A program made the position numbers and the translations under genes. A stretch of 63,662 bases of DNA, the filler included, from Collodictyon triciliatum (Eukaryota): NCBI GenBank assembly GCA_043381765.1. It is 55 parts of 55 records of this genome, joined end to end, with 100 filler letters (N's around TTAATTAATTAA, not from the genome) between each part and the next. Parts side by side here need not be neighbours in the genome. Positions count along the whole stretch, not along the records: positions 49,909 to 50,964 come from JBHJMP010012498.1; 54 more parts are not named here. One strand, given 5' to 3'. The stretch's first letter is position 1; each line of letters opens with the position of its first letter. Shown piece after piece: positions 30,238 through 59,533 of the stretch. The notes beneath the pieces are model-generated. The model saw nothing but the letters and a program-made list of their open reading frames with translations, searched no databases and was not told the origin of the DNA.

Positions 30238-30365
30238 ATTCCTGATTACCGACTACTTCTCCGCCACCCGGCCACCAGGTAGCGTTAGTGCAAAAGAAGG
30301 CTGGCAGCTTGGAGACAGGAACTTCATCTCCACACGCAAAGAAAATTAAACAAAATAAAAAATGG
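30238..30365 (+). mobile_element. LINE family A extreme 3' end
   Basis: Encodes FLITDYFSATRPP followed by an A-rich tail. Confidence 0.7.
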
Positions 30366-31396
30366 CAATGACCCAGTAAGATGGGTTTAGAAGCAAAGTA
30401 AATTGGCTTTGACTTCGGCTTCGTGGAAAAATAAGTTAATCGAACGCGATGGATTCTTTGAACGATGCATTTAAACAGAGCTTTGCATCAAATGGTGGAA
30501 CGAGTTTACTCAGGAAATGAGTTGTAGTGCGTCAGCATAGTTCATATACATATATTTATCACGGGCAAAAGGCATTCAATCAAACAAAAAAAAATCAAGT
30601 ACAGCATTATATCCAAATGGAAAGTTCCTTTTTTTTAAATAAAATTAGCGACTTTCACATGTTGCGTCTACAAGTTACGCATTCATTGTCTGATTTAAAT
30701 CAGCTGCGTCATTTGGACTTTGCCGGAAGTTAGGCCTCGGATTGAATCCAAGTCAGGCCTTTGGTAGTTACAGCTTTTAAGGATTGTATGTAGAAGCTCG
30801 ACGCACAATAGATGTATTTAGATGAGTCATGAGTTTTGTTTCTATACTACACCGACCTGCATGTGAATCAAAAACGCGTTCGTGCTTTCAACGAAGACGC
30901 AAGAACTAGGGCGGGCTGTAGGATCATAATAAAACCCTTTCTTTAGACAAAATATAAAAGGAAAAAATCAATGCGCCACATTGACCTTAGCGACAGTGTG
31001 AGATCAATAATTTACAAAAAAGATTTTTCTAGCAGTGGTTTAATCAGTTATTATTTTTACAGAATATCCAATAATATCGTATATTTCTTTTGAAAAGTAA
31101 AAAAAAGTAATATTATAGCATAAACCTTTGCTTTGTGTTGGGTTTTAGAAGCCATTATAATGAGTAAAGATACTCGAAAGGCCCGCGTCAATTAACCCCG
31201 CATCAAATATCAGCCTTTTCAAAAAAAAAAAACATACATTAAAAAAGAAACGGTATTCATCTTCGGCGATGTGTTTGATCAATAAACTATTGAAAANNNN
31301 NNNNNNNNNNNNNNNNNNNNNNNNNNNNNNNNNNNNNNNNTTAATTAATTAANNNNNNNNNNNNNNNNNNNNNNNNNNNNNNNNNNNNNNNNNNNN

Positions 31397-36028: not shown

Positions 36029-36121
<93 letters not shown>

Positions 36122-36124
<3 letters not shown>

Positions 36125-37040
36125 AGATAGGCCCAAGGCACACGACCAAAAAAACCCACTCTGAAAATAATGACTTTCGAATTGCAGTGCACGACAAGGC
36201 TCTCAAGGTCGGAGTGCGGCAGGTGTTTATGGAGGACCTGTAGAAAAAGTTTATCAAGGATTACATCTTCCGGGTCATCCAGGCAGAATGCATATGTCAA
36301 GGCCGGTACTTGTTGGAGACGTTGCTGGCGCGGCTGGTGATTGCGTGGTGGCTGGTACACTTCAAGCTCCATCTAAGTGCTGTACCCGATGCTGCGCATC
36401 ATCGCTCCGTGGTGGCTGCTGGAGTTCTCAGCATCCTTCCAAAGCCGTCCTACTCCCATATAGATCCCAACCATATTACTATTAATTAGGCGCGACAAGT
36501 TTATACCCTTCTTCGCCCCTAGAAATAATAGTCAATGCAAGTATATTCACCTTAATGAAGTGGGTTAAAACAGATACGTAAAAAAAAAACAGTGTAAGGT
36601 TTAATTCATTAGAAAAGATTGAGATGTTATTGACGGGTTTTCATGCTGATATTGTGTTAAGTTTGAATATCGAATAGTAAACATATAAAACTAATTAGTT
36701 CGATTTGACTGAGCAATAAGATAAACACAAAGGTTATTTCGTCGTCCTATCCACATGAGCGACGACCAAGTAAATTCTCATAATTTGAGAAGGAAGTAAG
36801 AAAAAAAATTGGCTGCAAAATGAGAAGCATAATGAGTCGCCTGAAGAAAAAAGGGAAACCCAACTAGCAAATATGCAGGTGTACGACAGGCAAAGGAAGA
36901 AAAAGGGAGACACTGCAGCAAATAGAAGAATGGCTTCATGACCAAGCAATCCGCGCAATGAATCGAAGAGAACAAGAAAGGCCTAATGAAAGGGTTAGTA
37001 GGCTTCATGTTCTAGCCATCAAGTCATAGACGACATAATT
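36122..37040. repeat. Diverged duplicate of 52334-53274
   Basis: Colinear, highly similar sequence over about 0.9 kb with scattered substitutions and small indels. Confidence 0.9.
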
Positions 37041-38598
37041 ATGAATATAGTGCTCAGTATTAATTGTATGGTTCGTTCATCCGTTTNNNNNNNNNNNNNN
37101 NNNNNNNNNNNNNNNNNNNNNNNNNNNNNNTTAATTAATTAANNNNNNNNNNNNNNNNNNNNNNNNNNNNNNNNNNNNNNNNNNNNTCGAATGAAAAATA
37201 GAAATATTACTATCTTGATATTACTTTACCTTGCGTTGTTAGCCCAGATTGTTTCAGTGTGGAGTGCGTTTCTAATAACCCGTCAACTCTTTATGGAGAG
37301 GTCCTGTAAAAGTTGCTTCTTGCTTGAGCGATGCTGATTCTTCCATAGCACCGTGTGGTTGGATTTAAAATAATCGACATTGTCTTTCTATGATTGGATG
37401 CTCGGTCTGTTAGTATTTTGTGATGGCGTTTACCATGGTTTTTTCCTTTGGTTTTTTCTTGCGTTCTGGGACGGATTATGAAAGACAGGGAAACGTAACA
37501 TTGAAGTTTTTTATAAATCACTGCGTAGTTATGATGCCAGATTCTAGTTCAGCGCTTCATTAATCGAAACACGTTTGAACATTTGATGAATACTGCTAAT
37601 ATGAATGCTTGTTTTTCACGTACTTTCAATGTTTTATTTGATGAAGCCACGAGAAATGCCACGGATGATGGGTAGCAAAAAGCTGACCTCTCTTTGTATC
37701 GGCGAAAAAAAAAAGAACGGATAAGTATTAACTTACTCTCTCCCCGCGTTTTATTTCTTTTGGAAAGTATAATGTTCATTTTTGAAGTTAATCGAGTAGC
37801 TGGTTCATATTCTTCTAAAAGTGACACGCAATATCTTTCACGACTTGGGCTTCTTCTTTCCTTATCTTTATGTGAGCGTGGTAGTTCTGGGCATTTGTGC
37901 TTACCTCGAAGGCGGATGTGGCAGCCGAATCTGCACATGTGCTTCCCAGTGCCCTTTTACTAGTGAACAGCTGTGGCTGGGAAGCTTTGCTCGAGCGGAG
38001 TGCTCCGTTCTTGTGCTTGGTTGTGTTTGCTTCAAGCTTGCGCTTTCTTTCTCCATGGTTTTATCATGTCCAAGAAAAATATAAAAAAAACAATAAAATC
38101 AGTTACAAGAGCTTCAGTAAACATCTAATACATGCATTTATATTCATTTGGATATAAATTAATTCATGCTCCTTACCATGCACCAACGAAAAGGCAGCCG
38201 AAGCGAGGCAACGATTTGTGTGGGTGAGAATTACCTGTTATGGNNNNNNNNNNNNNNNNNNNNNNNNNNNNNNNNNNNNNNNNNNNNTTAATTAATTAAN
38301 NNNNNNNNNNNNNNNNNNNNNNNNNNNNNNNNNNNNNNNNNNNTTTTTTTTTTAAAATTTTTTAATTTTTTTAATTTTTTTTTTTTTCGTTTTGGTTTTT
38401 TTTTTTTTTTTTTTTTTTTTTTTGCATATTTTATCGACGATTTGCTTTTTTGGGTGTTGAACTTCGGGGGCTCTTCCTTTTAAAAAAAAACTTTTAATTT
38501 GTGGTTATCCCTTATCTGATACAAATCCTCGCTTGGTTTAAATCTTAATGAGAAATATCAAACAATAATCGAATTTTGCCCTATTATTGTCTTCGAAG

Positions 38599-39128
38599 GT
38601 CGTATTTATTGGAGAACCTGGAGTGGGTATTAATTTCTTTATTATGGGCAATATGTTGGATATCACAAAGGGTGTAATTTATTAAATATAATGATCATAT
38701 CGTTAAAATGAGAAATCTTAGGGAAGACTTCAATCATACAGCGCTATACGAAAAACACATTCAAGACAAACTACTTGGCCACTGTAGGAGGTGTGTTAAT
38801 AAATACCATATGATTTTGTCTGCGAATTTCATGATTAAGTGATTTCATCTTCCACGATAATATTCCATATACTATTACACATCAGTCTATTTCCAAGTGA
38901 AGAGGATAAAAATAGATGGAAAGACTGTTGACCTAGGGGTACGTTGATGATTTTGTTGACGTATCAAACTTATCTGATTTTTTTGCTTTCTGTTGTTTAT
39001 TTTCCTATAGAATGTATATTTATTGGCTTTTTTTTAGATTTGGGACACTGAAGGTATAATTTAACTGACCTCCAGTTACCTCGTCTACATTTTGTTGTCA
39101 TTTGGAAATGAATCTCGAAGAGACCTAT

Positions 39129-39175
<47 letters not shown>

Positions 39176-39289
39176 TTTCAATTATATTTATTTCAATGAT
39201 TTTTTTTATTCTTCCTTTCAACTTTTGTGCAGGACCGTGGGGAATATCTATTTCAATGATATGCGATACCTTCGATTTTGTTTATAACG
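38599..39289 (+). CDS. Divergent Rab-like small GTPase on very short exons, possibly a pseudogene
   Basis: Spliced VVFIGEPGV|GKTSIIQRYTKNTFKTNYLATVG|VYFQVKRIKIDGKTVDLG|IWDTE. Confidence 0.75.
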
Positions 39290-39541
39290 GTACTTTTGTC
39301 CTATGTATGTATGTATGTATGTATGTATGTATGTATGTATGTATGTATGTATGTATGTATGTATGTATGTATGTATGTATGTATGTATGTATGTATGTAT
39401 NNNNNNNNNNNNNNNNNNNNNNNNNNNNNNNNNNNNNNNNNNNNTTAATTAATTAANNNNNNNNNNNNNNNNNNNNNNNNNNNNNNNNNNNNNNNNNNNN
39501 TTTCTTCTGTTATGAAAAACCCCATTACACTTAGCAAGAAT

Positions 39542-40309
39542 TTATTCCTCTGGAATTACACGCAGCGTAAACGAATAGTCTTGTAACAGATTAATTGTTC
39601 GTCCCAGTCTATCTACCAATCGGAAATTCCAGCTGAACGGGATATAACTACAGTCCATCAGATTCTCTAATATATTGTCATTGACCTCGTAATAACTTGA
39701 ATATCTCGCTCCAAGACCAAGTGGGATTTTGCTGATTATTCCGTTACCTCCGATGTTGCTGGCAAAACTTGAACTCTGAATGTTCGGGGACACAAGGTAT
39801 ACATAATCAAAAGGTCGAATATTGACTGTATTCTGTAGCTCTACAAAAGACGTGTTGAATGTGAGATTCGCTGTCAGTCCTATGAGCTCTCTACATGTAC
39901 TAGAATTCACAAACAGTTGGATTGAAATACTCGGACCGTCTCCCTTGATTGCTATTTTTTGCTTGCCGCTAAGATACGACACAGAAACAGCTAATGCGGC
40001 TGACTGGGATGCCGTAACTGCGTTCATTTTTGTTCGTATGTCACTGACGATTTCTTGTATAGTTAACAAGCCAGTTTCTAGTGAAACATTGTATGAAACG
40101 GGGCTGCCTGCTCCCACCTGACACAGAAAAGCTAATTCGTTGTTGGCGGTTGTGACATTGTGTACGGCATTCGGTATCTGGATGCTTTCTAATCCGATTT
40201 TTGCTTTACTCGACACGTACCTGTTTTGCGTTGTCGCGAAATTAAAGTCTGCGATACTTCCGCTTTCTCGGTTGGCAGAATCAACATAAATGTAAAACGC
40301 TTTATCCAT
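39542..40309 (-). CDS. Polinton-like virus minor capsid (penton) protein, complete
   Basis: MDKAFYIYVDSANRESGSIADF, LESIQIPNAVHNVTTANN, YVYLVSPNI, IISKIP, FRLVDRLGRTINL..DYSFTL: the motif order of PLV single-jelly-roll pentons; intronless. Confidence 0.85.
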   Translation of the reverse strand: MDKAFYIYVDSANRESGSIADFNFATTQNRYVSSKAKIGLESIQIPNAVHNVTTANNELAFLCQVGAGSPVSYNVSLETGLLTIQEIVSDIRTKMNAVTASQSAALAVSVSYLSGKQKIAIKGDGPSISIQLFVNSSTCRELIGLTANLTFNTSFVELQNTVNIRPFDYVYLVSPNIQSSSFASNIGGNGIISKIPLGLGARYSSYYEVNDNILENLMDCSYIPFSWNFRLVDRLGRTINLLQDYSFTLRVIPEE

Positions 40310-40341
40310 ACTCTTGCCAGAAATTATTTCTCTGCGGTTGT
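40310..40341. promoter_or_regulatory. Candidate bidirectional viral promoter
   Basis: 32-bp divergent intergenic region containing the inverted repeat AGAAAT-T-ATTTCT (40319-40331). Confidence 0.45.
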
Positions 40342-40556
40342 ATGAGCGACCCCGAAAATATAGATACCATTGAGAAACCAAAAAAGAAACGCGTAGTATC
40401 AGAAAAACAGAGAGCCCACCTTGCCAAAATTCAACCTAAAGCGACAGAAGCTAAAAAAAGAACAAGGAAATCGTTCAGACCGTCAAGAAATACGAGGCCG
40501 TCAAAAAACCCATTCACGACTATTCTTCGTTACAGCACGACGTGTCCTTGATCAAA
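40342..40556 (+). CDS. Small basic viral protein, N-terminus, probable frameshift in an A-run
   Basis: KPKKKRVVSEKQRAHLAK resembles basic proteins common in PLVs; the -1 frame after the A7 run at about 40453-40459 reads KNKEIVQTVKKYEAVKKPIHDY... open to contig end. Confidence 0.5.
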
Positions 40557-44127: not shown

Positions 44128-45156
44128 AATTTAATACCGGCGGGATATTTTGGCAATTTTGAATTAATACGTGTTTCTGATAGTGGTAATGGTACATGGT
44201 TAATAACTAATTTAAATGTTTATGATAGTTCAGGAACGAAACGAGAAATCGGGAGTTTATCAATTGCTAATAATTTAAGTATTGATGGGTCATTTTCAAC
44301 TAATGGAATAAATATAAATAGGAATTTTATATGGACACCACCGGCAGGAGTTGTACAAACATTAATATATGATATTGGAACTCATGGATCATATGTTCAA
44401 ATTAATGCAGTAAATAACAATCAGACAGTGTTTATAACTTTACCAAATTTAAATATTGCAGGATATCAAAATAAGACATTTTTATTAACTTTTGATTTAA
44501 TATTAGATAATGCAAGAACTCAAACAAACGGCGTTTTTTCTTATTCATCACCGACAGTTAGATTATCAACGGGAAACAGACCGGCACAAGAATATAATGG
44601 AAATTTAGTATATGAGCCTAGAAGTTGGAGACTTGACACACCAGGGGGTGCACTAACAAGAAGAGATTATAGAGGAGGTCCAATATCATTTTTAGTTAGT
44701 ACAAATTCTAATTATACATGGTATCGTCCTATAACAAATGATGATGATTTTATAGAAGATGTAGGATCGATAAATTGTATTTTTTCAAATCCTGATTATT
44801 ATATAAATGTTAATAATTTAAATCAAGGGATAACATTTTATAAATATAATGAAGTAATAGGGGCACCATCAGGAACAAATGTTATTTTAAATTTTGAAAC
44901 TTTAACATTTACCGATAATAAATTTACTATATATTTTACTATGACGTCGGGAAATTCTACCGGTAATTTTAATATAAGAAATAATATGTCACCAGGTGAT
45001 ATAGTTAATATATATTCTCAAGGATCAGTATCAACTTTAGCGGTTGCAGGTAGTACCAACAGAGACGGTCAATCATTTTTAAGATGTACATATTATCATA
45101 GTAGATTCGGAAACCCTCAAAATGTATGGGTAATACATGTACTAAACTCAATATAA
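44128..45156 (+). CDS. AT-rich, beta-strand-rich N/T/G/I protein, C-terminal part; probable viral fibre or structural protein
   Basis: Open from contig start to TAA at 45156, intronless, strong A/T third-position bias, fibre-like composition. Confidence 0.5.
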   Translation, partial: NLIPAGYFGNFELIRVSDSGNGTWLITNLNVYDSSGTKREIGSLSIANNLSIDGSFSTNGININRNFIWTPPAGVVQTLIYDIGTHGSYVQINAVNNNQTVFITLPNLNIAGYQNKTFLLTFDLILDNARTQTNGVFSYSSPTVRLSTGNRPAQEYNGNLVYEPRSWRLDTPGGALTRRDYRGGPISFLVSTNSNYTWYRPITNDDDFIEDVGSINCIFSNPDYYINVNNLNQGITFYKYNEVIGAPSGTNVILNFETLTFTDNKFTIYFTMTSGNSTGNFNIRNNMSPGDIVNIYSQGSVSTLAVAGSTNRDGQSFLRCTYYHSRFGNPQNVWVIHVLNSI

Positions 45157-45284: not shown

Positions 45285-46340
45285 ACATGAAATGCATATT
45301 AATTGACTGAATGAACCGTTTTTGTTGTTAAATGTTCCAGCTGGACATGACGTGCATGATGCTTGACCATCTCTATCATTCCAAGTACCTTGTGGACATT
45401 CAATGCATGATTTGTCTCCATATGAGCCGGAGTTTGAGTTGAATGTACCTTTTGGACAAGCGTTGCATGATTCCGAATCTTTTGTGATTCCTTCTTTTTG
45501 ATAGAATCCTGATGGGCATAGGCTGCACGATAAGCTTCCAACCGAGCTATAGCTTCCATTTGGACATGAAATGCATATTAATTGACTGAATGAACCGTTT
45601 TTGTTGTTAAATGTTCCAGCTGGACATGACGTGCATGATGCTTGACCATCTCTATCATTCCAGGTTCCTTGTGGACATTCAATACATGATTTGTTTCCAT
45701 ATGAGCCGGAGTTTGAGTTGAATGTGCCTTTTGGGCATGTATGACATGATTCTGAGTCTTTTTTGATTCCCTCTTTCTGATAGAATCCTGATAAACATAG
45801 GCTGCATGATGCGCTTCTTTCTGAGCTGTAGCTTCCATTTGGACATGAAATGCACGAGTATTGATTGAATGAGCCAGTTTTGTTGTTAAATGTCCCAGCT
45901 GGACATGACGTGCATGATGCTTGACCATCTCTATCATTCCAAGTACCTTGTGGACATTCAATACATGATTTGTTTCCATATGAGCCGGAGTTTGAGTTGA
46001 ATGCGCCTTTTGGACATGCATAGCATGATTTTGAGTCTTTTGTCTTTCCCTCTTTTTGATATAATCCTGGTGAACAAAAAATGCATGATGAGCTACTTTC
46101 TGAGCTGTAGCTTCCATTTGGACATGGTTTACATGATAATACATCAAATGAGCCAGTTTTGTTGTTGAATGTACCAGCTGGACATGATGTGCATGATGCT
46201 TGACCATCTCTATCATTCCAAGTACCTTGTGGACATTCAATGCATGACTTATTTCCATATGAGCCGGAGTTTGAGTTGAATGAGCCTTTTGGACAAGTAT
46301 GGCATGATTGTGAGTCTTTTATAATTTCTTCTTTTTGATA
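45285..46340 (-). CDS. GCC2/GCC3-type cysteine-rich repeat protein with a 279-bp (93-aa) higher-order repeat
   Basis: True frame has no Met, so the ORF track shows off-frame ORFs: YQKE...SCHTCPKGSFNSNSGSYGNKSCIECPQGTWNDRDGQASCTSCPAGTFNNK...; same family as 20956-22015. Confidence 0.85.
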
Positions 46341-48845: not shown

Positions 48846-50572
48846 TAATCATCGTAACAAAATCTTTGAATCGAATAAAGAAAAAAAATCATCATAACAA
48901 AATAAATATTGCGACAGAAATGCTCAAACATTATTAAAGAAGAGATTTCTCCAGCGACTAATGATTGTGAACAATTTTGGTGGCTTGTGGTTGCGATGGT
49001 AGTCGAATAGCCCTCCCCAGAAATCTAGATAATATCACCACGTTTATTTTGTATTCATATTAGAATTTATAATTTTCTTGTGATAAGAATTTAATGATTG
49101 GGGACTACCGATTGGGATGCATGTCATCGTATTGTAAACAATACAAAAATGAATAAGAAAATTAAAATTATTACTAGAAATCTGCAAAATCAACAGATCA
49201 AGAAAGGTAAGGGAGGAAGCCTGACACAATATGTAAATATATGATAATAAAAAATAGATGAGCAATCAATAAAAAAATCAATTAGCAATTAGTAATAAGA
49301 AAAAAATATGCCGTGAAGTAAATCAGAGATAATAATGGATTCTAATATGCAAAGTTCCAAGCTCACCAAAGAAACGCACAGGATCTTCTTTTAAGGTAGC
49401 GGGTGTCCGGATCGCGTCTGAGTCGGCAGAAGAACTGCGCACATCGACTGGATAACGACAGGCGCGACTGAACCCGCCGCCCGCTAAACAATGATAGAGA
49501 CGAATGGCGACAAGAAAGGTTTTTACGAAAAATTACTAATATAAAATGCACACATGTAAATTTTGACCTTAAAGATAATAATATCAAGAATAAAAAATCA
49601 AGAATAAAAAATCAAGAATAAAAAATCAAGAATAAAAAAAATCAAGAATAAAAAAAATCAAGAATAAAAAAAATCAAGAAAAAAAATCAAGAATAAAAAA
49701 ATCAAGGATAAAAAAATCAAGAATAAAAAAGAATAAAAAAGAATAAAAAAGAATAAAAAAGAATAAAAAAGAATAAAAAAGAATAAAAAAGAATAAAAAG
49801 AATAAAAANNNNNNNNNNNNNNNNNNNNNNNNNNNNNNNNNNNNNNNNNNNNTTAATTAATTAANNNNNNNNNNNNNNNNNNNNNNNNNNNNNNNNNNNN
49901 NNNNNNNNTATTTTATTTTATTTTATTTTATTTTATTTTATTTTATTTTATTTTATTTTATTTTATTTTATTTTATTTTATTTTATTTTATTTTATTTTA
50001 TTTTTTCCCCTCTGCTTTTCCTTATGACAACTCATGCGTCGAACCTATATAAATCGTATAATGATGGGGCATTTGCAACTGGTCCCAGTATGCATCATTC
50101 AATGGAAGAAGATCCCTTGCAGTCGAGCGAGGTTTGATGCCTTGCGTGCGTGCAGTTTTCTCTCTCAGCGCACCAACATGGCCGGGCATTAGAAAATACG
50201 AAAGGGAAATGAAAGCGGATTCATTAGAAGGCTGCAGAAAGTGCGCCGAATGAAACAGCACGCTAATGAACAGTTCAATGATGATTTTTTTGTTCATTGA
50301 ACGAGCATTTGTATACCTACTATATATATTGTTAGCTGCATTTGTATATTTTACTTATTAAATAAAGCATTCATTTATTGAGGGTTCATAATATTTACAT
50401 TATATTTTCCACATATAATGATACCCTGTTGGGAATTTTATTTATTTGGAAGTGTGAGTAAAACAAAAATTTTGCTGGGTTTGTTTGTACACATATTTGT
50501 TCAGTGCGACATGGTTTGAGGCTAGCCAAGATGTCAATTTTCATCCAATCCATGTTTCTAGTTACTATCATA

Positions 50573-50708
50573 TATGCTAGAAGGGGTACTAATCTTTCGA
50601 TTGGTAAACCTGGTGCACTAGTATCCAATGTCTCACCACTTGTTTCACAAGGATTGTGTAGTGGTGAAGGCTGCCAGGGAAGACCCAACAGCCTGTTATT
50701 TAGAGGAA
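50573..50708 (-). ncRNA. Candidate Fanzor omegaRNA scaffold / element right end, copy 1
   Basis: Three predicted hairpins, conserved with 59396-59533(+). Confidence 0.65.
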
Positions 50709-50950
50709 GGTGCATATTTTTCGAAGGATTAAAACAACTTTGTTGAGTATATTTATAGCGCTGTGAATGTCCCTTGTCAAGAATATACTTTGTTTGCTTT
50801 CTGACCGATTGCATTATTTACTTATGAGACATCCATATACATTTTTTTAATTTCCATTCAGTTTCATATGTTCCAGTTCTTTTTCGCAGTTGCAGCATAT
50901 CTTGGATGTTCTAAATTCATTTACACAAACTGTTTCAAAATGTTTGGATG
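50700..50950 (-). pseudogene. Fanzor (eukaryotic TnpB) C-terminal remnant, copy 1
   Basis: VCVNEFRTSKICCNCEKEL...*...LISK*C...FLTRDIHSAINIL: RuvC-II glutamate motif, zinc ribbon and RuvC-III RD..A.NI; two in-frame TAA; absent from the ORF track. Confidence 0.85.
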
Positions 50951-51064
50951 GTATTTTTTTTTATNNNNNNNNNNNNNNNNNNNNNNNNNNNNNNNNNNNN
51001 NNNNNNNNTTAATTAATTAANNNNNNNNNNNNNNNNNNNNNNNNNNNNNNNNNNNNNNNNNNNN

Positions 51065-52119
51065 GCGATGTTACTCAATGCAAGGCCGTTTGTGCTTCCA
51101 ATATCGACATCGCCGACATCCGGGCTCAGATTTGCATAGGCGCTTGACGTTCCTACGACTCCATAGCATGTGGACGATGTAAGCTTTACAATACTGAGCG
51201 AATTTGCTTGCATGGTGGCTGTTCCTATGTTATCGATAGCTATCGAGGTCGGGTCATCGCTGGTGTAAGATAGTAGCCCAGTGATGGTGTGAGCCGTTGG
51301 ATGTTTTGTTCCGTCTTGGAATACGGCAGTCGCTTTGATGCTTTGTGTTGATGTTCCGATGATACCAGTGTATGTTGACGGAAATACGGTCGCTAGCGAT
51401 GTTGCGCTTACAGTTTCGTCCACGACAATGATGTCTATTGTAGCTGACGCATCGCCGTATGAGGCTGTGATTGTAGCAGCTCCGAAGTTTGTACCAGTCG
51501 GTTCAAGGATAGTTTTGTCTTTGATTTTGAAAATATTTTGCTGGCTTGTGGGTACAGAGAATACGGTCAGTGATTTTGACGTGATGTCATGCACAGAGTT
51601 GTCAGTCAGTCTCATAGACAATGTCAGCGTCGCTCTTTGATAGACCTGTGTGCATGCATAGCGAGTCAGCTTAGTCAGTGACACTGAGCTGGAGCCTGTG
51701 TATGTCGGATATGGACTGGATGAAACACTCAGTGACACAAATCCAATTACGGTGATGTCCACGCTTCCATGTATATTGGGTGCGCTGTTGACTGTCACTA
51801 CTATCGTCGCGGTTCCGAAGCCATTGCCTGTTGCAACCACATAGACCTCTGTGATGCTGGATGACACTGTTGTCGTCTCAATTTGGATGATGTTGTTTGC
51901 ATCAGCGGTGATGTCGTCATAGTTTGTCCTAGAGTCTAGTGTGTAGTCACTTTGCTGTCCATTCTCAAAAGTGCACATGACCTTCAGATTGCTCTTCGTG
52001 GGTATGCCAACAGTTGTTGATAGGTCATTGGCACTCGTGATTTTAGTGTCTGTGACTGTCACTGTTATTTGAGTAATCTTGGGTAGATTCAAGTTCACGA
52101 GTCCGAGTCCGCTACCAAG
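51065..52119 (-). CDS. Large extracellular Ig-like repeat protein (TMEM132/Big-domain-like), internal fragment
   Basis: Open across the contig, T/S/V-rich beta-sandwich periodicity, YQRATL..MRLTDNSVHDIT and NLSPDVGDVDIG motifs. Confidence 0.55.
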
Positions 52120-52333
52120 GNNNNNNNNNNNNNNNNNNNNNNNNNNNNNNNNNNNNNNNNNNNNTTAATTAATTAANNNNNNNNNNNNNNNNNNNNNNNN
52201 NNNNNNNNNNNNNNNNNNNNAAAAAAGAAAAAAAGAAAAAAAGAAAAAAAGAAAAAAAGAAAAAAAGAAAAAAAAGAAAAAAAGAAAAAAAGAAAAAAAA
52301 GAAAAAAAGAAAAAAAGAAAAAAAGAAAAAAAA

Positions 52334-53274
52334 GAAAAAAAGAAAAAAAAGAAAAGAAAGGCTCAAGACACACGACCAAAAAAACCCACTCTGAAAATAA
52401 TGACTTGCGAAGTGCAGTGCACGATAAGGCACTCAAGATCGGAGCGCGGCAGGTGTTTATGGAGGGCCTGTAGAAAAAGTTTATCACGGATAACATCTTC
52501 CGGGTCATCCAGGCAGAACGCATACGCGAAGCGCTGGTACTTGTTGGAGACGTTGCTGGCGCGGCTGGTGATTGCGTGGTGGCTGGTACACTTCAGGCTC
52601 GCCATCTAAGTGCTGTACCCGATGCTGCGCATCATCGCTCCGTGGTGGCTGCCGGAGTTCTCAGCGTCCTTCCAAGGCCGTCCTACTTACCCATATAGAG
52701 CCCATCCATACTACTATTAATTAGGCGCGACAAGTTTATACCCTTCTTGCCCCTAGAAATAATAGTCAATGCAAGTATATTCACCTTAAGTGAAGTGGGT
52801 TAAAACAGCTACGTAAAAAACAGTGTAGGTTTTATATCATTAGAAGAGATTGAGATGTTATTGACGGGTTTTCATGCTGATATTGTGTTAAGAAGTTTGA
52901 ATATTGAATGGCACACATATAAAACTAATTAGTTCGATTTGACTGAGCGAAAAGATAAGCAGAAAGGTCATTTCATCGCGTCCTATCTGCATGAGCGACG
53001 ACCAAGTAAATTCCCATAATTTGAGAAGGAAATAAGAAAAAAAAATTGGCTGCAAAATGATAAGTATAATGAGTTGCCTGAAAAAAAAAGGGAAACCAAA
53101 CTAGCATATATGCAGGTTTACGATAGGCAAAGAAAGCAAAGGAGACACTGCAGCAAATAGAAGAATGGCGTCATGACCAAGCAATCCGCGCAATGAATCG
53201 AAGAGAACAAGAAAGGCCTGATGAAAGGGTTAGTAGGCTTCATGTTCTAGCCATCAAGTCATAGACGACATAAT
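52334..53274. repeat. Diverged duplicate of 36122-37040
   Basis: Colinear high similarity to the other copy. Confidence 0.9.
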
Positions 53275-59038: not shown

Positions 59039-59148
59039 CTGTTGGGATNNNNNNNNNNNNNNNNNNNNNNNNNNNNNNNNNNNNNNNNNNNNTTAATTAA
59101 TTAANNNNNNNNNNNNNNNNNNNNNNNNNNNNNNNNNNNNNNNNNNNN

Positions 59149-59241
<93 letters not shown>

Positions 59242-59258: not shown

Positions 59259-59456
59259 TTGTTGAAATACGTAGAAATGCATCTCTGCCCCAGCGCGAGA
59301 GAGAATGTAAACAAACTATTCTTGACAAGGGACTTTAACAGCGCTAAAAATATACTCAGCAAAGTTCTTTTAACCCTTCAAAATATGCCTACATCTTCCT
59401 CTAAAAAACAGGTTGTCGGGTCTTTCTTGACAGCCTTCACCACTAAAAGAACATAG
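59259..59456 (+). pseudogene. Fanzor C-terminal remnant, copy 2
   Basis: LFLTRDFNSAKNILSKV (RuvC-III); nucleotide similarity to copy 1 from about 59310 onward. Confidence 0.75.
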
Positions 59457-59533
59457 TGAAAAAAGTGGTTAGACCTTGGATACTAGCGCACCAGGTTTAC
59501 CCATCTTTCAATTGGTATACATCTTCCAGTATA
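59396..59533 (+). ncRNA. Candidate Fanzor omegaRNA scaffold / element right end, copy 2
   Basis: Conserved with 50573-50708(-); substitutions in hairpin 1 retain base pairing. Confidence 0.65.

Follow-up and report, generated by a model that had tools for sequence, protein, structure and literature searches.

Two related fragments on separate contigs

The stretch of DNA analysed here (the window; 63,662 bases from the Collodictyon triciliatum assembly GCA_043381765.1) carries two related fragments, copy A and copy B, each of which joins the decayed C-terminal end of a gene for Fanzor1, a eukaryotic RNA-guided nuclease, to a shared downstream tail that may once have been the scaffold of a guide RNA (omegaRNA). 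The window consists of 55 contigs of 1,053-1,066 bp each, arranged in descending size order and separated by spacers of the form N44-TTAATTAATTAA-N44 (for example 50965-51064 and 59049-59148). Because the contigs are simply chained, adjacency across them carries no meaning. According to the map of N runs and the contig split, copy A lies on the contig at 49909-50964 and copy B on the contig at 59149-60202, and their flanks are unrelated.

The minus strand of copy A reads in one frame from 50703 to 50960 as KKIPSKHFETVCVNEFRTSKICCNC...RDIHSAINIL..., the last 86 codons of a decayed Fanzor1 gene as judged from the translation and its HMMER relatives, with TAA stops at codons 38 and 49. Within it, the segment N-E-F-R-T-S-K-I-C-C-N-C (50886-50918, minus strand) holds Glu15, a TS motif and the first CxxC of a zinc ribbon (C22 and C25), and the RuvC-III motif R-D-I-H-S-A-I-N-I-L with Asp64 occupies 50745-50774 (minus strand). 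The current frame closes at a TAA 24 codons past the Arg-Asp (RD) pair of this motif (50700-50702, minus strand). Upstream the open reading frame (ORF) ends at the contig edge, 50964, and its truncation there is not necessarily biological. The coding remnant of copy B (...FLTRDFNSAKNIL...; 59295-59456, plus strand) has about 31 recognisable codons in a frame that stays open to a TAG at 59454-59456, and an (ATT)n microsatellite at 59150-59241 lies immediately upstream of it.

A blastn comparison of copy A with all 55 contigs gave copy B as the sole significant match apart from copy A itself (208 nt, 83.2% identity, E 3e-57), every other match having E >= 0.023. In a stricter local alignment, 50802-50599 of copy A (minus strand) pairs with 59302-59505 of copy B (plus strand) over 204 nt at 83% identity. 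The first-pass annotation of this DNA had described both the minus-strand peptide with its two stops and a diverged second copy on the plus strand, and both descriptions hold. It had also followed the similarity for about 135 nt past the conserved coding motif; the shared tail is firm as far as 50599/59505, 101 nt past the stop codon of copy A, and the remainder to 50573/59533 is only marginal. Beyond 50573/59533 the flanks are unrelated. Two copies fix the right boundary only to within about 26 nt: it falls somewhere in 50573-50599, next to or within the zone of marginal similarity at 50573-50598 (minus strand), which corresponds to 176-202 nt after RD.

The coding remnants derive from a Fanzor1 gene

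Queries for the protein family used the 86-residue read-through of copy A, with X at the stops. Direct matches to existing profiles and structures were weak. Pfam PF07282 (Cas12f1-like TNB) was matched at E 0.019 with 15.5 bits against a cut-off of 26.3, the NCBIfam TnpB profile NF040570 at E 0.0084 over its last 53 positions, and the Protein Data Bank (PDB) at E 0.25, to the Parasitella Fanzor1 (9cf0). An HMMER search with the remnant (P0001) against 1.84 billion representatives yielded 63 relatives at E<=1e-3, including 9 at E<=1e-10. The top relative was P0002, a protein of 136 amino acids (aa) with 74% identity (E 7.8e-24), and 11 of the matches, 588-695 aa in length, aligned at their C-terminal ends. 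PF07282 was present at E<=0.01 in 7 of the 10 relatives scanned, one of which passed the gathering score. A homologous-protein search at longer lengths gave 26 candidates, none of which was scored.

One full-length relative, P0007 (634 aa), is 51% identical to P0001 (E 5.9e-14). Its three PDB matches at E<=1 are all Fanzor1 proteins, with no TnpB or Fanzor2 among them: the Spizellomyces punctatus enzyme SpuFz1 (8gkh; E 9.2e-37, residues 14-607), the Parasitella enzyme (9cf0; E 7e-34) and the Guillardia enzyme (9cer; E 7e-16). Because the step from P0001 to P0007 and that from P0007 to 8gkh are both this strong, the transitive link from the remnant through its 63 relatives to solved Fanzor1 structures is strong despite the weak direct match, and on sequence comparison the assignment of the coding remnants to Fanzor1 is well supported.

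The same assignment can be followed residue by residue. The RuvC-site residues listed for SpuFz1 are D383, N385, E541 and D606 (PMC10432273), and the alignment of P0007 with 8gkh, read against that list, places Glu15 of the remnant at E541 and Asp64 at D606. The D606 equivalent is kept in copy B too; the region of D383 and N385 would lie beyond the contig end at 50964. In an alignment of 37 sequences (A3), the columns of E15, T18, S19 and C22 are nearly invariant. Bao and Jurka (2013) gave the Fanzor1 signature as [TS][TS]-x-x-C4 zinc finger-x(5,50)-RD (PMC3627910), which is present in copy A as T18 S19 K I C22 x x C25 ... S47 x x C50, 12 residues, then R63 D64; copy B has only the RD part. 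The Fanzor identity first proposed for this locus is thus upheld by the 63 relatives, by the full-length match of P0007 to solved Fanzor1 structures and by the retained equivalents of the catalytic Glu and Asp.

Both copies have decayed

The first in-frame TAA of copy A (codon 38; 50847-50849, minus strand) is a copy-specific nonsense codon. In the second half of the zinc ribbon (50811-50822, minus strand), Cys50 is kept, the TAA of codon 49 (50814-50816) interrupts the frame, and residue 47 is Ser, where at least 90% of the sequences in alignment A3 have Cys. The RD-x-N motif carries His in copy A (N66H) at the position where the relatives and copy B have Asn. Two 151-nt metagenome contigs proved to be diverged copies of the coding remnant, with 16 and 17 differences; in them the first TAA is replaced by ACA or AAA, the second by GAA (Glu) and the Ser47 codon by TGT (Cys), and the residues of P0002 at the two stops are Thr and Glu. 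These sense codons in the metagenome copies and in P0002 indicate that the stops of copy A are copy-specific damage and not the product of a variant code.

Copy B is shorter. An hhalign comparison with the family profile recognised it with 90% probability (E 1.7e-6) over 31 columns and found nothing recognisable upstream, so that the zinc ribbon and RuvC-III motif are both found in copy A and RuvC-III alone in copy B. Differences of 2 nt in length between the copies flank the RD motif on both sides. Over the 20 codons from LTRD onward all 7 of the codon differences are non-synonymous, which implies that no selection has acted at the protein level since the copies split. An intact gene would present an ORF of about 600-700 aa; copy A offers 86 visible codons with two TAA codons, C47S and N66H, and copy B offers about 31 codons in a frame shifted relative to that of copy A. 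Judged by their sequences, both copies are remnants and not working nucleases, as had been noted at first pass, and neither gives any sign of remaining activity.

Translation of the RD-motif DNA in the +1 frame gives exactly the last 13 residues of P0002 (..TLTALKIYSRKFF), with the same stop (compare 50733-50780, minus strand, and 59321-59376, plus strand). Since its end lies in the +1 frame, the gene model of P0002 crosses either a frameshift or a second partial copy, and P0002 probably also derives from a decayed copy.

The shared tail contains two hairpins and a conserved 3' block

Downstream of the coding remnant, hairpin 1 of copy A (50668-50694, minus strand) has an 11-bp stem and a 5-nt loop and is followed directly by hairpin 2 (50633-50667, minus strand), an 8-bp stem that shares a 6-bp core with copy B and encloses a variable interior of 19 nt, in which most of the 9 differences in 36 nt are found. 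The counterparts in copy B are hairpin 1 at 59410-59436 and hairpin 2 at 59437-59471 (both plus strand), the latter retaining the 6-bp core only, with the outer C-G pair lost. Next comes a conserved block (50599-50632, minus strand, in copy A) that differs at 2 of 29 nt (93% identity) and includes a 24-mer common to both copies (50603-50626 and 59478-59501). In copy B we place this block at 59472-59533 (plus strand), with a firm end at 59505, the further end at 59533 being that of the first-pass annotation. The 24-mer occurs exactly twice in the window, a number reached in 0 of 100 shuffles, which confirms the shared stretch reported after hairpin 2. A third helix is possible between TACTAG and TTAGTA in copy A or TTGGTA in copy B, reaching into the 50573-50598 zone, as suggested by the minimum-energy fold of copy A and a reading of both sequences.

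Both 121-nt tails were more stable than dinucleotide shuffles (-36.7 kcal/mol, z -2.84, for copy A; -32.8 kcal/mol, z -2.99, for copy B). An ungapped alignment of 120 nt of the tail contains 24 differences, 10 transitions and 14 transversions. Hairpin 1 has 5 of these differences, none of them a transversion, whereas among the other 19 the transitions number 5 (Fisher p 0.006). Four of the hairpin 1 changes fall in the stem, each on one side of a pair, and all four keep a standard pair, for which the chance is 0.006-0.012 at the background share of transitions. Folded on the ORF strand, hairpin 1 keeps in copy B (-15.2 kcal/mol, z -5.1) the stability that it has in copy A (-16.0 kcal/mol); on the opposite strand it loses stability from copy A to copy B (-12.3 to -6.4 kcal/mol). 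Such a difference between the strands would be expected if selection acted on a sense-strand RNA containing G-U pairs.

Among the structural details previously proposed, hairpin 1 and its pair-preserving stem differences were recovered in full. The closing of hairpin 2 was recovered in part, in that the ACCACT/AGTGGT core is common to both copies and invariant and the outer C-G pair is broken in copy B by a G to T change. The letters of a suggested GTCT/AGAC pseudoknot are present in both copies; its 4 bp are invariant and lend it no support, and the solved SpuFz1 omegaRNA is described as two stems and a linker with no pseudoknot (PMC10432273).

Protein-profile homology ends upstream of hairpin 1 in both copies. 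We also considered whether the C-terminal extension of copy B is homologous to the C-termini of the relatives; the hhalign match stopped at ...LQNM, and a likeness by eye between LTAFT and GLTFT was too weak and was not used. A search of the whole window gave no Rfam 15 match at the gathering score. Further copies of the tail were sought by exact matching, with no occurrence of the 24-mer in prokaryote genome contigs or in viral contigs (IMG/VR) and none of a 22-mer of the tail in Joint Genome Institute (JGI) metagenome contigs. A pattern for hairpin 2 matched once in viral contigs and once in genome contigs, both times by chance and inside unrelated sequence, and when metagenome contigs were scanned for a protein pattern, none of the 97 sequences that matched it was a relative.

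At the outer edge of the tail, both copies have C(T/C)AG followed by (C/T)A (50575-50580, minus strand; 59526-59531, plus strand), about 20-25 nt past the firm similarity. Judged from its letters, this site might represent the end of a Tc1/mariner-like element followed by a duplicated TA target. The best inverted-repeat pair at copy B (16 nt, 88%) is AT-rich and lies off the limits of the A/B homology.

Giant-virus relatives carry a conserved structure in the same place

A pattern and tblastn scan of IMG/VR met the pattern 283 times and confirmed 122 of these matches as relatives; the best 80 of the 122, mostly on contigs of giant-virus metagenome-assembled genomes, were retained (L001-L080). 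The closest intact relatives of the remnant are giant-virus loci among these best 80, with 31-55% identity over about 70 aa. A motif search located a gene with the zinc finger and RD in 74 of the 80 loci. Its stop-to-stop ORF spans 590-709 codons in 54 of these 74, and the ORF continues past RD for 21-78 codons, mostly 30-61. The ESM Atlas clusters reached with P0007 are 92-100% viral (Nucleocytoviricota) and named 'transposase', with DUF8286 and Cas12f1-like TNB domains; one further cluster near P0007 belongs to Chlorophyta.

The 3' regions of the 33 best-matching of the 80 loci were compared, and 20 of them were aligned. Similarity between viral contigs continues to about 215-219 nt from RD in the group of L001 and about 238-257 nt in the group of L003, and then stops. 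In the 20 aligned regions conservation is nearly complete through the stop codon to ...TTCAARGGTGTAA (...GGTGTAA), with noise immediately after. One helix pair changes from G-C to A-U in 5 of the 20 aligned sequences, the 3' strand of a long-range terminal stem coincides with the very end of the element, and among the four closest viral relatives 5 of 32 predicted pairs are changed on both sides. This viral 3' region has the appearance of an omegaRNA combined with the right end of a Fanzor1 transposon that is widespread in viruses. A conserved 3' structure with a sharp end implies that the nuclease clade to which the remnants belong carries a right end of the expected omegaRNA type. In the viral tails themselves (for example L003:3287-3414 and L001:3280-3440), the very end is base-paired with an inverted copy located internally, TTACAC..TTT, and compensatory changes occur in at least 2 helices.

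Comparison with characterised systems

Fanzor1 has thousands of catalogued members.

The nearest characterised parallel is SpuFz1 of the Spizellomyces punctatus element SPu-1 (PDB 8GKH; PMC3627910, PMC10432273). Its C-terminus has the same E-x-x-TS-x-x-C4 zinc ribbon ... RD arrangement, and a folded, conserved region with two leading stem-loops runs from right behind the stop codon to the right end of the element. In the published accounts, by contrast, the SpuFz1 scaffold measures 75 nt, as against 101-127 nt after the stop codon here, and the guide follows directly after stem 2, where our copies have a conserved block of 26 nt after hairpin 2 (PMC10432273). The 30-nt inverted repeats and TA duplication described for SPu-1 are not demonstrable here, and both of our copies are pseudogenes. 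The tail has no nucleotide similarity to the tails of the relatives with which it was compared, a set that did not include the SpuFz1 RNA itself. Other published features bear on the layout: the omegaRNA of GtFz1 overlaps 17 codons of its ORF, and Fanzor transcripts extend 14-15 nt into the flank, a stretch that serves as the guide (PMC10432273). Fanzor1 genes are carried by DNA transposons of eukaryotes and giant viruses (PMC10432273, PMC10530073, PMC3627910).

The giant-virus Fanzor1 elements, with structure across the stop codon and a sharp right end 215-257 nt after RD, match the putative layout of the copies here, whose right end would lie at a comparable 176-202 nt. They differ in that the viral tail ending ...TTCAARGGTGTAA is unrelated in sequence to the tail of copies A and B, and in that the viral genes are intact, whereas the copies here are broken, have microsatellites next to them and sit on contigs resembling eukaryotic junk DNA. 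ORF-less Spu-1 elements that keep the scaffold were described as 'ghost' omegaRNA loci by Saito et al. (2023, PMC10432273). Copy B resembles these in keeping the tail with only about 31 recognisable codons. The ghost loci as described are complete elements from inverted repeat to inverted repeat; no such repeats bound copy B, upstream of which lie the microsatellite and the contig end, and copy B may equally well be a simple 5'-truncated fragment.

TnpB proteins (IS200/IS605, IS607) and Fanzor2 share the RuvC-III and zinc-ribbon core and an omegaRNA that overlaps the 3' end of the gene. TnpB is about 400 aa long, unlike the relatives found here (588-709 aa), and a prokaryotic TnpB was rejected on these lengths and on an NF040570 score of 15.4 bits against a cut-off of 100. 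Fanzor2 was rejected on the three PDB matches of P0007, all of them Fanzor1.

Interpretation of the tail

We propose that each stretch is a decayed piece of the right end of a Fanzor1 DNA transposon and that the tail is its former omegaRNA scaffold, a reading to which we assign a probability of roughly 0.68; the Fanzor1 part is close to certain, and the scaffold role, which is inferred, sets the limit on the whole. Each fragment would comprise the C-terminal end of the nuclease gene and about 100-130 nt of the right end of the element. In an intact element, this right end would be transcribed on the ORF strand, together with the gene or behind it, and then processed into a scaffold of at least two stem-loops followed by the conserved 3' block. 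The scaffold would end at the transposon boundary, and the next ~15 nt of flanking DNA would form the guide that directs the nuclease. The role of the tail as such a scaffold is plausible by analogy with SpuFz1, GtFz1 and the giant-virus layout, and the tail plausibly fits it by position, sense strand, approximate right boundary and the substitutions in hairpin 1. Taken on its own, the scaffold role appears fairly likely to us.

Several results weigh against this interpretation. No compensatory change was found between the copies among 33 predicted consensus pairs. When the fold of one copy was tested on the substitutions of the other, 30 of 37 pairs were intact against 27.0 expected (P 0.12), and the reciprocal test gave 25 of 32 against 23.3 (P 0.28). 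The tests that did reach significance, one on the two hairpins combined (P 0.003) and those on hairpin 1 by itself, were picked post hoc, with both sequences known, and the 4 of 4 pair-preserving changes of hairpin 1 give P 0.20 when all changes are assumed to be transitions. The stem of hairpin 2 is invariant and hence uninformative either way, and folds of the 3' domain compete and differ between the copies. The tail is less conserved (83%) than the adjoining decayed coding part (93%). In copy B, owing to a 2-nt difference, the open frame crosses hairpin 1 to the TAG in the hairpin-2 loop, so that some of the tail may have encoded protein in the ancestor. Comparison with the viral relatives gave no direct link either: blastn of both tails against the 80 viral loci returned 6 short matches (E 0.002-0.30), none in a 3' tail and the best, in L001, being RD-motif coding DNA, and a covariance model of the 20 viral tails, run on the window with filters off, gave 17 matches (E 0.33-9.7), none on copy A or B. 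No convincing terminal inverted repeat or target-site duplication was found on either contig, neither of which includes the left end of the element. Finally, only two tail copies were found, and the omegaRNA reading rests on these two.

The earlier view of the tail stands in part. Its omegaRNA-like character is favoured by position, strand, the hairpin 1 changes and the layout of the viral relatives, and is not favoured by the lack of compensatory pairs and the non-significant whole-fold test. Covariation and a sharp 3' boundary had been named as the check to make; the two copies show no compensatory pair, and their flanks are unrelated beyond a boundary that they place only approximately. The statement that a scaffold can be defined from these copies was too strong in view of the competing 3' folds and a right boundary uncertain by about 26 nt.

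Some of these points would also fit a Fanzor1 gene whose tail is a neutral leftover from a recent common ancestor, either 3' untranslated region or former C-terminal coding sequence, with fortuitous hairpins. Under neutrality, 83% identity in the tail would be unremarkable, as it is no better than that of a coding part which is itself unconstrained (7 of 7 codon changes non-synonymous), and the absence of compensatory pairs and of significance in the whole-fold tests would be expected, as would a frame open across hairpin 1 in copy B, given ORFs that continue 21-78 codons past RD in 74 relatives. What neutrality does not predict is that the hairpin 1 changes should all be transitions, unlike those of the remaining tail (p 0.006), with pairing kept on one strand only. 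Nor does it fit well with the end of protein-profile homology upstream of hairpin 1 in both copies, with a 2-nt A/B indel just upstream of hairpin 1 behind which nucleotide similarity is intact, or with the structured, conserved region found at the same place in the relatives and in characterised Fanzor1 elements (PMC10432273). We consider a neutral tail unlikely. A different function, as terminal DNA of the transposon (a terminal or subterminal repeat, or a hairpin that serves the transposase as a recognition site) or as a 3'-end signal of the messenger RNA, seems to us quite improbable. Fanzor1 genes do occur in Mariner/Tc1, hAT, Helitron, Sola, IS4 and other elements whose ends are conserved for the transposase (PMC3627910, PMC10530073), Jiang et al. 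state that conserved flanks may mark transposon boundaries (PMC10530073), and the C(T/C)AG-(C/T)A site would suit a Tc1-like end with its TA duplication. Against this, no inverted-repeat partner was found on the contigs, from which the left ends are missing, and hairpin 1 is conserved on one strand only and by way of G-U pairs, a pattern that suggests an RNA and not recognition of double-stranded DNA. Moreover, the right-end repeat is the DNA of the omegaRNA scaffold in characterised Fanzors (PMC10432273), so that a terminal repeat largely overlaps with the scaffold that we propose.

We also considered, and rejected as very improbable, that TAA is read as an amino acid by a ciliate-type code and that copy A is part of a working gene. 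The internal and terminal stops of copy A are indeed all TAA, the contig is AT-rich, and the changes from Lys or Thr and from Glu to TAA are single-base changes, all of which such a code could accommodate. However, it would leave unexplained the loss of the zinc-ligand Cys (C47S) and of the RD-x-N Asn and the 2-nt indels between the copies, and no relative has Gln at either stop position. In other contigs of the window, perhaps from another organism, ORFs of 350-385 codons are free of stops in the standard code and use its usual codons for Gln.

Returning to the Fanzor1 fragments with a putative scaffold, by its sequence the element belongs to an uncharacterised sub-lineage of Fanzor1, the protein being nearest to giant-virus Fanzor1s (among the best 80 loci) and the tail distinct. 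Metagenome data add context for the lineage. A unique flank of the contig of copy A (50222-50551) recurs identically or nearly so in 151-nt contigs of two freshwater metagenome runs, with 0-3 mismatches and a 4-letter gap, and parts of this contig are present at low depth in lake-water and freshwater runs (word shares 0.23 and 0.07). The tail (50557-50736) lies outside every contig from those two runs. Less decayed copies, with sense codons and an intact zinc ligand, come from two lake or freshwater runs and hint that an intact gene exists. A more far-reaching and rather doubtful scenario is that the fragments sample a possibly still living Fanzor1 lineage of a freshwater eukaryote, that host and virus branches of one nuclease clade have swapped or rebuilt their omegaRNA, and that copy B is a guide locus without a nuclease.

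Fanzors are under development as compact genome editors, and any new lineage, together with the scaffold that matches it, might supply a tool. Should the tail prove to be a scaffold, the element would represent a Fanzor1 sub-lineage that combines a giant-virus-related protein with a different RNA, and would inform on the pace of co-evolution of nuclease and guide and on the traffic that links giant viruses with their hosts. Both copies are dead and incomplete and leave the scaffold undefined; what they offer in practice is the peptide and the 24-mer, which can serve as search handles for intact copies in better assemblies.

Other features of the window

Microsatellite ends are common across the contigs of the window, and a search for transfer RNA genes found none in it. 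Five contigs have ORFs of 297-355 codons that run from end to end (2335-3318 and 44128-45153, plus strand; 3498-4562, 39545-40435 and 51067-52119, minus strand), none of which matched Pfam or PHROGs. The ORF at 3498-4562 has a P-loop-like G-G-T-G-K-T at its end, and a pattern scan of IMG/VR found no relative of it. These scans, of the five contig-filling ORFs in Pfam and PHROGs and of the one in IMG/VR, gave no sign of giant-virus DNA in the assembly.

The contigs at 20956-22014 (plus strand) and 45285-46340 (minus strand) are each filled by an ORF of ephrin-receptor-like cysteine-rich repeats of the GCC2/GCC3 type; in the former these are fused to WD40 repeats, an architecture typical of protists. 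By its contents the assembly looks fragmented and most likely eukaryotic. The contigs at 36029-37086 and 52221-53274 are 91.5% identical across 1,022 nt and might represent two alleles, a duplication of recent date or a repeat. A dispersed repeat family links six contigs (4663-5728, 6994-8057, 12814-13877, 13978-15041, 30238-31296 and 38344-39400) through blocks of 38-314 nt with 78-95% identity. Within this family, an ORF at 13181-13753 (minus strand) has a weak zf-RVT match (E 3e-4), and the family probably consists of remnants of a retrotransposon of the type that lacks long terminal repeats (non-LTR).

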